Positions 3,001 through 5,778 of a stretch of DNA of 5,778 nucleotides are shown one piece after another (the first letter of the stretch is position 1; the number at the start of each line of letters is the position of its first letter). Made by a program: the position numbers. The DNA is from a virus. Its lineage: Duplodnaviria > Heunggongvirae > Uroviricota > Caudoviricetes. The DNA lies in the IMG/VR virus record IMGVR_UViG_2541047442_000014, positions 1-5,778 of that record; one strand, given 5' to 3'.

Positions 3001-5778
3001 TTGCAGATTCCAGCGACTGGTCCAGTATTCTTTCCCGTCAACCTTCACTGTAAATGTGTCATCCTCATTATACTTGGAAAACTCAATTTTACCTTTAGCA
3101 CAATCCGCCGCCATTGCATTAACAGAAGCTAATGCAAATAAAACCGCCATAAACATCTTCTTCATGCTTAACTCCTTTATTTACCCGTTGTATATAAAAA
3201 CTGTGACTTTCTGTTCAGAAACGCTGCAGCTGTATTACTTTCCCATAATGTATTGTTTATTTTTATAACAGGCCTGTCGCCAGTTATCTGACATTCTGGT
3301 TGACTCTCTTCATTCACGGCGCGAACAGAACGCGCCCCCTGATGATGGCAATTCAGTATAACGGCCACAGTCCCCAGTATCGCTGATATATTATTAAAGG
3401 ATATTCTCCCCACTCTGACACCATCCTCTCCCCGATACTCCGGAAGCACATTGCTGATTCGCCCCCAGTTCAGAGTGAGGTCCACGTCTCCCGGCGTCAT
3501 CGTATACACAGGAGCAGTTTCAGACAGTGCCTGACGAAATTCTCTCTGTATCTGCCTGAAGCGTAAGGCTTCTGCTGTGACAGTGACAAAACGCAGAACT
3601 GCTCTGGATGCATCTCTGGTCATTGTATTACCACTGAACTCCATTAACGCCAGATATGATGAAACCAGTGAGTGACGACTGATTTGCATTCCGGAACGTT
3701 CCAGCGCTGCGACACGTTGCAGAGTGGTATAACTGCTGTCCGTTGTCATGGAAACCGTTGTCACACCGGGCACTGATATATGTGTAAAATCTGAAAAACG
3801 GTAGAAAGTATTTGTTGCCGTATTAACGAACCCGGCCACATATAAATTATTTTGCTCAATAATCAGACGAAGATGGTCAAAACGCGCCTGATAGACATCA
3901 AGCCCTCGTATATCCACAGCAAAATAACTGCCCGGTGGGGTGTGGTTAATAACAGACACCGATGTGGTCCCCTGAGATATATGTTCAAGAGGGGTCGATA
4001 TCTCTGTCCGTATACTATTTAACGAAGAGACATAACTTTGTTGGGTCGAAAAGTCTATCGTAAACTCCCGGGAATAGGATACCGAAGAAAAACCCAGTAA
4101 CAGGCACAGTACCCATTTAAATAATATACACTTCATATACAGGTGTTCCTTTTGGCTGAAGTAATCAGCACCAGACCCGGCGCAGATATAAAAAAGGCCC
4201 GCAAAAGCGAGCCTGGTAAATAAATATGGCGCGTTGTACTGGATTCGAACCAGTGACCGATTGCTCAGAAGGCAATTGCTCTGTCCGGCTGAGCTAAAAA
4301 CGCAGAATACCGATAATGGACCGCCATCGGAGACTCGAACCCCGCGAAACCAGCTTCGAAGGCTGGCGTTCTATCCCGATGAGCTAATGGCGGTATGTGA
4401 TGGTGGCCCTTGCTGGATTTGAACCAGCGGCCTGGCGATTATGAGTCGCTCGCTCTCACCACTGAGCTAAAGGGCCGGGCGCAGGATAATAACGTTACGA
4501 AATCAATGTTGCAAGCATTCAAGAATCACCTGGTTAAAAATTACCCTTGCTTCCTCCACCAGCGCATTCACCATGTCTATCCGAGATAAGTGGCACAAAA
4601 AAACCCGCTTGTGGGCGGGTTTTGTTTGCTTTTGCCATCACGTACAAAATCGGCAAAATATCAGATTTGCATGAAATATATGCCTTTCAATCTACTTTTG
4701 CAACACTTTGCTTTGAAAATGCCGCCTTTTGTTTTGAACGCGTTCTCATTACAAACAATAAAGCCTCACTATCCAGTCGGTGAAAAATGTGTTTCATTGC
4801 AACCCAGTGACGAGTAAATGTTTTGGACCAGTTTTTAGTTGTCACTCCCACCAGTAATGCCAGCTCCTTGTATTCATAACCTTCCCCACCAAAAAGTTCT
4901 GCTTTTACTGCCTGCGCCGCCAGCCAGATTAATTTTTTCAGGCGTTCCTGCGTTTTCCCTGCAATTTTTCTGGTACCGGATTGAGTATTAAATTCATTCC
5001 ACGCCCACTGTGTTATCGCGATCTGATATTCCCAACAAATACTCCCGCTGTAACACCACAACAACCAGGCTTTATGATGTTCTTCAAGAGACAGAACAGC
5101 CCGCCGCCACGATGATGTCGAAAACTCAACCGGACTGACCAGAGGAATTGACGTCACCTTCGCCAGCGATTGCTTTCCCGGGATTGGTGGATTATCCCGC
5201 GTTATCATTTTTCCAGTCACTTCATCGCGGTACCGGATTTTTTTTCGCCTGTAACGCCCTGTATCGAACATGGCATTCTCCTGCCAGGCTTCAAGCTGAC
5301 CTTTTGTTGCCCCACTCAAATCAGCGGTGGCGATAATGAGCAGCTCACGCACAAACTGTAAATAGTGGTTATTCATGCGCACTCCAGTTCTGTGATTTTT
5401 ATCCCCAGCCGCTCACCAGGAACGAGCTGACCGCGCACAATATTGATTTCATCAAACTGCTCGTCGTCTATGAGAAGTCCGGCATGCGTCAGCACATCCT
5501 GAACCGCCCCGGAAATCCTGGAGACTAAACTCCCTGAGAAAGAGGTAAACAGGATGACTAAAAATACTCGTTTTTCCCCCGAAGTCCGTCAGCGGGCGAT
5601 TCGTATGGTTCTGGAAAGTCAGGATGAATATGACTCACAGTGGGCGGCAATTTGTTCCATTGCCCCAAAGATTGGCTGTACGCCGGAGACTCTGCGTGTC
5701 TGGGTTCGCCAGCATGAGCGGGATACCGGGGGCGGTGATGGTGGGCTCACCAGCGCTGAACGTCAGCGTCTGAAAGAG

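Follow-up and report, generated by a model that had tools for sequence, protein, structure and literature searches.

When a toxin phage carries a promoter and a terminator between its antiterminator gene and its Shiga toxin genes, is the short RNA that they define a relative of the small RNA (sRNA) StxS, or is it something else? The question is raised by the minus-strand interval 4703-4597 of a 5,778-nucleotide (nt) stretch of tailed-phage DNA (IMG/VR record IMGVR_UViG_2541047442_000014, positions 1 to 5,778; here called the window, to the whole of which all coordinates refer), in which the Q antiterminator gene, the promoter, leader and terminator, a tRNA cluster and the stx2 genes all lie on the minus strand. 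A first-pass annotation had called the product of this interval a candidate StxS-type sRNA. In our analysis the interval is very probably the late-gene control module (pR', Q-loading site and tR') of a phage-82-type Q protein of family PF06323. As such it is of a known kind, in which an 82-type late promoter and Q-loading site precede an IsrJ-like leader and its terminator. This assignment is made because of the family of the Q protein, the register of the phage 82 landmarks, the co-occurrence of Q, an extended promoter signature and a terminator, and homology to the mapped RNA IsrJ. As matters stand, the leader RNA is best seen as chiefly a by-product of the Q switch.

A probable late promoter, leader and terminator downstream of Q

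The gene that ends at the interval encodes a full-length member of PF06323 (Table 1), 75.7% identical to the Q protein of phage 82, 72.5% to that of phage 434 and 66.5% to AntQ of Gifsy-1. The three Q families are regarded as unrelated, and among the solved Q-lambda and Q21 structures there is none related in sequence to the window Q. A promoter of the form TTGCAA-17-TATATT, which the first-pass annotation had placed over the end of the gene in the Q position, is indeed found there (4703-4675, minus strand, over the Q stop codon), and the strong hairpin with seven U residues that it had noted about 70 nt downstream is present at 4623-4597 with a predicted free energy of −13.4 kcal/mol. The −35 hexamer overlaps the 3' codons of Q, and the stop codon (4689-4687) lies 19 nt before +1, a distance found again in eight of the 11 other family members described below. 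Canonical spacing from the −10 hexamer puts +1 at A4668, and the RNA ends forecast earlier (5' end at 4668-4670, 3' end near 4597) agree with this position. The terminator has a GC core (CCCGC/GCGGG, 4619-4615 and 4608-4604) with a 6 nt loop, and hairpin and U-run together span +46 to +72; a simple terminator scan gave its plus-strand mirror image only, as the Ts were absorbed into the stem. The 72-nt leader (4668-4597) as a whole has a predicted fold of −20.9 kcal/mol (z = −3.0 relative to shuffles).

Published work on the phage 82 late promoter (PMC5001585, PMC4914094) supplies the landmarks with which this register can be compared. Wild-type 82 pR' starts with AAA, at which stuttering occurs (PMC5001585); its pause element resembles a −10 hexamer, is nearer to consensus than that of lambda and carries an extended −10; GCC at +15 to +17 is followed by an AT-rich tract; and pausing occurs at +25/+26, with U at +25 after the AT-rich tract. 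In lambdoid pR' promoters generally the Q-binding element (QBE) sits between −35 and −10 (PMC4914094). With +1 at 4668 all of the transcribed landmarks fall into place: the AAA start (4668-4666, which together with TTGCAA-17-TATATT agrees at the sequence level with an 82-type start), the TG-extended pause element, GCC, the AT-rich tract (GAUUUUG at +18 to +24) and U at +25. From +1 to +17 the window is identical to phage PhiR47_2, whose Q is 97% identical to that of phage 82, and the annotators of phage 434 marked a terminator in the same place, behind its Q82-like gene. The fit to the 82-type landmarks thus bears out the earlier description of a pR'-type late promoter beside Q with a short leader running to an intrinsic terminator. 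An extended 46-nt signature (TTGCAAAA-N16-ATATTT-N6-AATNTGRTAT) has a single match in the window and none in 200 shuffles, even when two mismatches are allowed.

If the interval works as an 82-type module, sigma70 RNA polymerase would start at A4668 from pR' (−35 at 4703-4698, −10 at 4680-4675), a promoter expected to be constitutive, and sigma70 would then re-bind the TG-extended −10-like element (+6 to +14) and give rise to a pause at about +25. Without Q the polymerase would leave the pause and terminate at 4623-4597 (+68 to +72), freeing a leader of ~68-72 nt. Q made after induction would bind the promoter-embedded QBE and load onto the paused polymerase, which would then read through tR', the terminator after the tRNAs and later ones, and so into the tRNAs, stx2AB and the lysis genes; the hairpin between the tRNAs and stx2A (4214-4195) would be a further barrier that Q-modified polymerase would pass. 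We infer promoter activity in the host, pausing, termination efficiency and Q dependence for the window allele. Read-through into the tRNAs and stx2AB in the presence of Q, as anticipated in the first-pass annotation, would be the expected logic of such a module. As to its companion statement, that transcription stops without Q, a putative tRNA promoter at 4514-4486 means that transcription would not simply be stopped in the lysogen. This second promoter-like site lies at the position homologous to L003 1428-1457 in our reconstruction of the Sakai Sp5 locus, and in Sp5 the paper on StxS reports a primary transcription start site between tR' and stx2AB that drives the tRNAs. A second promoter that matches the reported Sp5 tRNA promoter implies expression of the tRNAs independently of Q in the lysogen.

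Two further observations were made in the same interval. The sequence TTGCAACACTTTGC (4698-4711, plus strand) fits TTGCN6TTGC, the consensus of a CII box, and lies across the pR' −35, which is on the other strand. A CII site and the −35 of paQ are annotated at the homologous place in the phage 434 record, and the box is kept in PhiR47_2 and 434 but not in Enterobacter BHUENT6, the one non-E. coli sequence inspected by eye. There is also a 34-amino-acid (aa) open reading frame (MAKANKTRPQAGFF..., 4638-4534, minus strand) that begins in the leader and reads through the terminator; it is probably not a gene, as no Shine-Dalgarno sequence precedes it and relatives vary in the stretch beyond the terminator.

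Conservation across the Q82 family and homology to IsrJ

Conservation was assessed in a set of 12 phages of seven genera (Escherichia, Salmonella, Enterobacter, Klebsiella, Cronobacter, Morganella and Hafnia), whose Q proteins share as little as 32% identity, and by a motif-first scan of IMG/VR; both were used since 80 close-relative IMG/VR loci were too alike for covariation. All 12 family phages align without a gap from −45 to +17. The block cTTGCAAAA is common to 11 of them, Cronobacter phage phiES15 having TTGAAAAA, and TG(A/G)TAT is invariant in all 12. Identity is 69% in the promoter/pause block as against 49% in the adjacent upstream coding sequence and 36% in the leader body (+17 to +45). 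The promoter lies outside any coding sequence in two of these phages (the Hafnia phage, and Gifsy-1, where isrJ follows anrP), so that its conservation is not a by-product of the C-terminus of Q. A strong hairpin with a U-run is found in 11 of the 12, the leaders measuring either 49-54 nt or 68-80 nt. In a consensus fold of six leaders the terminator is the sole supported RNA structure, with two compensatory pairs. The motif-first scan returned 120 loci carrying the signature, with 87 distinct leader sequences, and a Q82-family reading frame lies directly upstream in 115 of the 120 and a terminator downstream in 113, so that the leaders again fall into the classes of 49-54 nt and 68-80 nt. Among the 80 close relatives the leader is 98-100% conserved and the sequence just downstream 82-100%. 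Of 5,426 complete E. coli genomes about 1,093 (about 20%) carry the module at a coverage of at least 80%, often in two or three copies. One of these is exact over all 161 positions of window 4560-4720 and lies in prophage Sp12 of strain Sakai, downstream of ECs_2267 (leader copy at NC_002695.2, 2241063 to 2240992), so that an identical copy resides in the best-studied strain of enterohaemorrhagic E. coli (EHEC).

The true homologue of the window leader is IsrJ of Salmonella Gifsy-1 (RF01393). IsrJ is a 74-nt RNA, mapped by primer extension, that ends at its terminator and is expressed in lysogens; its expression is reported to be HilA-dependent, and its deletion to lower invasion and effector translocation by Salmonella. 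The Rfam isrJ model matches the window at 24.5 bits, below its gathering score of 37, with the match spanning the full model (1-75 of 75). When Gifsy-1 (locus L004, 4015-4120) is set beside the window the promoter, the 5' end, the size class and the 3' terminator are the same, and the 5' end of IsrJ maps to the site homologous to A4668. The two share the promoter TTGCAA-N17-TATATT, the first 11 transcribed bases (AAATCTGATAT) and the tract CAAACAAA before the terminator; their lengths are 74 nt and 72 nt, and AntQ, the Q protein associated with IsrJ, likewise belongs to PF06323. They differ in that the leader bodies are unrelated, that the Gifsy-1 promoter is parted from antQ by isrK-orf45-anrP, and that HilA dependence and the invasion phenotype are Salmonella-specific.

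Several points weigh against reading the interval as an 82-type control module. The promoter hexamers alone (9 of 12 positions matching) are not above chance, with nine promoter-like sites in the window as against 6.0 ± 2.5 in shuffles; the significance of the site lies in the extended signature and in its family-wide conservation, not in the bare hexamers. The comparison with 82 pR' uses published landmarks and PhiR47_2, as the phage 82 record X92588 ends at the Q stop; a full-text literature search with the leader sequence returned unrelated papers only. At several positions the window spacer (the candidate QBE) departs from the 82-like one; part of it (AAAA..A.T.AA) is conserved, even where it lies outside Q coding sequence in the Hafnia phage and at Gifsy-1 isrJ. 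The identical Sp12 copy appears neither in the EcOnc list nor in the searched top portion of the ranked table of Hfq-bound intergenic regions, and the same portion of that table includes both StxS loci, at ranks 34 and 39; the EcOnc catalogue left out peaks within 100 nt of genes, a filter that the Sp12 leader copy would not have passed. Finally, the link to stx2a is rare, and the junctions concerned are either independent recombinants at the tRNA cluster or assembly joins across a repeat. The identity of the leader is independent of the junction, and the claim that it gates stx2a depends on it.

Other identities for the leader RNA

StxS was the identity first suggested for the leader. According to the paper describing it, StxS derives from a 258-nt pR'-tR' transcript that is cut by RNase E to 74 nt, tracks a 144-aa Q and is not found in the other (207-aa) Q clade examined there; binding to Hfq and the targets rpoS and stx1B have been demonstrated. 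StxS is known from Stx1 and Stx2a phages (Sakai Sp15 and Sp5), and its 144-aa Q is of the Q933W/Q21 type. We rebuilt the Sakai Sp5 StxS locus (L003) on NC_002695.2, with the promoter, GU|AUU cleavage site and terminator as anchors (the paper used NC_002695.1, offset +142). The genomic logic of Q, promoter and terminator upstream of stx is the same in the two cases, as is the concept of a terminated pR' transcript in the lysogen, and a hairpin in the pR' region of Sakai shares 14 nt (GCGGGTTTTTTTGT) with the window. That stretch is the only short identity, however; it consists of terminator stem and U-run, and the Sakai hairpin concerned (L003 1069-1097) is not the terminator of StxS_S. The 258-nt StxS gives no blastn match to the window, similarity between the window and Sakai Sp5 begins only at L003 1428, downstream of StxS (1046-1303), and global alignment gives z = 2.5-2.9 for StxS as against 5.1 for IsrJ. 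The 144-aa StxS-linked Q of Sp5 belongs to PF06530 and the 229-aa window Q to the unrelated PF06323. We therefore rejected StxS on account of the missing sequence match, the unrelated Q family and the contrast between a predicted 72-nt primary transcript and a 258-nt one that is processed, and regard a homologue or variant of StxS as next to impossible. 'StxS-type' holds as an analogy only, and the size agreement cited for it (about 74 nt) sets a primary transcript against a processed fragment, the 74-nt form of StxS being an RNase E product and the window RNA a predicted primary transcript of ~72 nt. A short pR' leader upstream of stx thus need not be StxS, which corrects a tempting mis-annotation, and inferences about RpoS activation or Stx1 repression that are based on StxS are not transferable to phages with a Q82 module. 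As a separate observation on Sp5, the hairpin at L003 1069-1097 (+24 to +52 of pR', within the 258-nt StxS_L and ~50 nt from its start) is strong and followed by seven U residues (GAACCCGCCGATGCGCGGGTTTTTTTG); it has the 14 nt in common with the window terminator and could belong to the loading site of the Q933 type or give rise to an undetected RNA of ~50 nt.

The interval could also hold no dedicated short RNA at all, the hairpin serving just to end the early or Q transcript and the hexamers being a matter of chance. That the 9 of 12 hexamer score is within shuffle expectation and that the hairpin follows directly on the end of a gene would suit such an account, but it is very improbable given that the 46-nt signature never arises in shuffles, that it is kept gaplessly while Q varies between 32 and 75% identity and even outside coding sequence, and that IsrJ is a mapped primary short RNA from a homologous promoter. 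The leader might otherwise be one of the catalogued prophage sRNAs of EHEC or enteropathogenic E. coli, or an attenuator of the amino-acid-operon type, and this too we consider extremely unlikely. HnrS (EcOnc10-12) is a 66-nt multicopy prophage sRNA with copies in Sp9, Sp10 and Sp12, but its place is between lysis genes and terminase genes, in the opposite orientation; the leader has no blastn match to the Sakai loci with EcOnc10 and EcOnc11, and HnrS was rejected on this and on its different position. PasA and PasC occur near the RusA and TerB genes, and this overlap of neighbourhood is set against differences of position and sequence, on which the Pas sRNAs were rejected: PasA, PasC and PasD1 typically adjoin the holin/lysozyme operon, in strain E2348/69 PasA and PasD2 flank a sialate esterase gene, and PasD is a relative of STnc100. 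Weak Rfam matches to the Phe, Trp and Leu leaders come from the terminator and score far below the gathering thresholds, and a leader peptide is lacking, the only reading frame being the 34-aa one described above.

More serious is the proposal that the leader, besides marking the Q switch, acts in trans as an Hfq-dependent lysogen sRNA with targets of its own, a functional analogue of StxS and IsrJ. Such a role is possible but unsupported and unproven, and we consider it rather unlikely. It has precedents in StxS and in IsrJ with its deletion phenotype, and the leader looks like an Hfq ligand, with a GC hairpin, U7 and three in-phase ARN triplets (AAAAGCAAA, +36 to +44) just upstream. The spread of the module through E. 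coli genomes and the closer conservation of the leader than of the sequence downstream of it in the 80 close relatives also speak for it. Across the family, on the other hand, conservation is confined to the DNA-level control elements and the terminator and does not extend to the RNA body, which leaves a trans-acting role unproven; with neither the body nor any structure other than the terminator conserved, there is no family-level constraint on a seed, and the conserved 17 nt at the 5' end are accounted for by the DNA-level pause function. The absence from the EcOnc list and from the searched top portion of the Hfq table counts against it indirectly as well, as does a duplex test in which pairing with the translation-initiation regions of stx2A, stx2B, nanS-p and Q was in no case above that of shuffles. 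A bolder version, to which we give somewhat less credence still, is that IsrJ in Salmonella and the window RNA, carried by EHEC prophages (Sp12 among them) and by rare Stx2 phages, belong as Q82-type late leaders to an unrecognized family of pR'-derived, Hfq-associated sRNAs in which the pause element fixes the 5' end and the body is a freely evolving, lineage-specific seed. If that were true, a Stx2a phage in which the Q933-type module had been swapped would leave its lysogen without StxS, and hence without its RpoS activation and Stx1 repression, would provide another riboregulator instead, and would place toxin release under a different antiterminator.

Window layout and comparison with known late promoters

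The features of the window are collected in Table 1 together with those of the rebuilt StxS locus.

Table 1. Coordinates of features in the window and, in the last four rows, in the rebuilt Sakai Sp5 StxS locus (L003)
Feature	Position	Strand	Basis or detail
IS629 end, cuts rusA	5778-5500		
rusA, 3' part	5499-5383		
Q antiterminator gene, 229 aa, Q82 family	4687-5376	−	ATG at 5376; PF06323, E = 3.9e-91
pR' promoter/leader/terminator module	4703-4597	−	
pR' −35 hexamer TTGCAA (−35 to −30)	4698-4703	−	Within last Q codons
Promoter spacer, 17 nt; candidate QBE	4681-4697	−	QBE by inference
pR' −10 hexamer TATATT (−12 to −7)	4675-4680	−	
Predicted transcription start, +1 = A4668, in AAA run	4666-4668	−	Canonical spacing from −10
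Predicted sigma70-dependent pause element	4652-4663	−	TG +6/+7, TATTTT +9 to +14, GCC +15 to +17
Predicted promoter-proximal pause, +25/+26	4643-4644	−	U at +25
Predicted terminated leader RNA, about 68-72 nt	4597-4668	−	
tR' intrinsic terminator	4597-4623	−	Hairpin 4623-4600, U7 4603-4597
Second promoter-like site TTGCAA-17-TATTAT, just 5' of tRNAs	4486-4514	−	Promoter scan
tRNA-Ile(CAU), tRNA-Arg(UCG), tRNA-Arg(UCU)	4227-4476	−	
Terminator-like hairpin and T-run, between tRNAs and stx2A	4195-4214	−	
stx2A	4136-3177	−	Reading-frame call
stx2B	3165-2896	−	Reading-frame call
STnc100	2616-2821	−	Rfam, 207.7 bits, above threshold
AsxR	2562-2614	+	Rfam, 88.1 bits, above threshold
nanS-p	2409-472		
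Sakai pR' promoter	L003 1012-1039		
Sakai StxS transcription start site	L003 about 1046		
Sakai StxS GU|AUU cleavage site	L003 1217-1221		
Sakai tR'	L003 about 1278-1303		

The window is a mosaic. Above 4288 it is Sakai Sp12-like (one mismatch over 4288-4720) and below ~4297 it is Sakai Sp5-like (no mismatches over 4050-4297, with stx2a 99.4-99.5% identical to Sp5 across this part), which places the crossover at 4288-4297, inside the third tRNA, tRNA-Arg(UCU) (4227-4303). The first tRNA is called Met by ARAGORN, and at homologous loci the three are annotated as ileZ-argN-argO. The whole window is found in no complete E. coli genome or phage record, the best coverage being 83%. A Q82-type leader directly upstream of an stx2 gene was found in no phage record; of the 5,426 complete E. 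coli genomes none has it upstream of stx2a and two have it upstream of stx2g, at about 92% identity. Two of the 80 IMG/VR relatives have an stx2 link, L006 with a stx2A 5' region 100% identical to that of the window and L066 with one 92% identical, and in L006 the junction of the same Q module with stx2a falls elsewhere, between 4495 and 4430. The choice of Q module controlling stx2 is known to matter for toxin output, and a Q82-type module directly upstream of stx2a appears to be rare. Sakai Sp10 (L098, 1940011-1940565) has an Sp12-like late-region layout but a different, 184-aa antiterminator, with only two tRNAs, 100 nt apart; it is a further example of Q-module swapping at the same position.

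At the other end of the window the 279-nt IS629/IS1203 end (5500-5778) is 100% identical to the Sakai copy and abuts the truncated rusA 5' of Q, so that the early-operon context of Q is disrupted; this could alter Q expression and hence toxin induction. AsxR and STnc100 stand back to back between stx2B and nanS-p, and a weak, sub-threshold Esr41-like Rfam match lies at 395-472 on the plus strand.

Among characterized late promoters that of phage 82 is the closest to the one described here, with the same Q family, the same position over the Q stop and an intrinsic terminator that closes a short leader. Differences lie in the spacer and, from +18 onward, in the leader body; the leader measures 72 nt in the window and 78 nt in the 82-like phage, and the cargo is tRNAs and stx2AB in the window where phage 82 has its lysis genes directly; phage 82 pR', the work of the Roberts and Hochschild laboratories, is the biochemically studied prototype, and the window allele a predicted counterpart. 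The 6S RNA of lambda (pR' to tR', about 194 nt) is more distant. Like the predicted window module it has a late promoter that is constitutive and contains a QBE, a sigma70-dependent pause close to that promoter, and a leader that is terminated without Q, but the lambda Q belongs to family PF03589, pausing is at +16/17 rather than +25, and the leader exceeds that of the window about 2.7 times in length. IsrK of Gifsy-1 (RF01394) resembles the window leader as a short terminated RNA directly 3' of a Q82-family gene with read-through into downstream genes; it differs in its promoter (TTGACA-17-TATATT), in the rest of its sequence and in lacking the 82-type pause signature, and the Rfam match is weak (22.7 bits; gathering score 50). 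In Gifsy-1 (L004 3179-3300 and 4015-4120) the RNA adjacent to antQ, IsrK, thus has another promoter, and the 82-type signature is found at isrJ, after anrP. This layout points to isrK-orf45-anrP as having been inserted between Q and the pR' it originally had, with isrJ as the natural loading site of AntQ. The terms 'late promoter', 'phage 82' and 'Q82' do not occur in the IsrK/IsrJ papers searched. IsrJ, an RNA associated with virulence in Salmonella, is now tied to the biochemically classic late promoter of phage 82.

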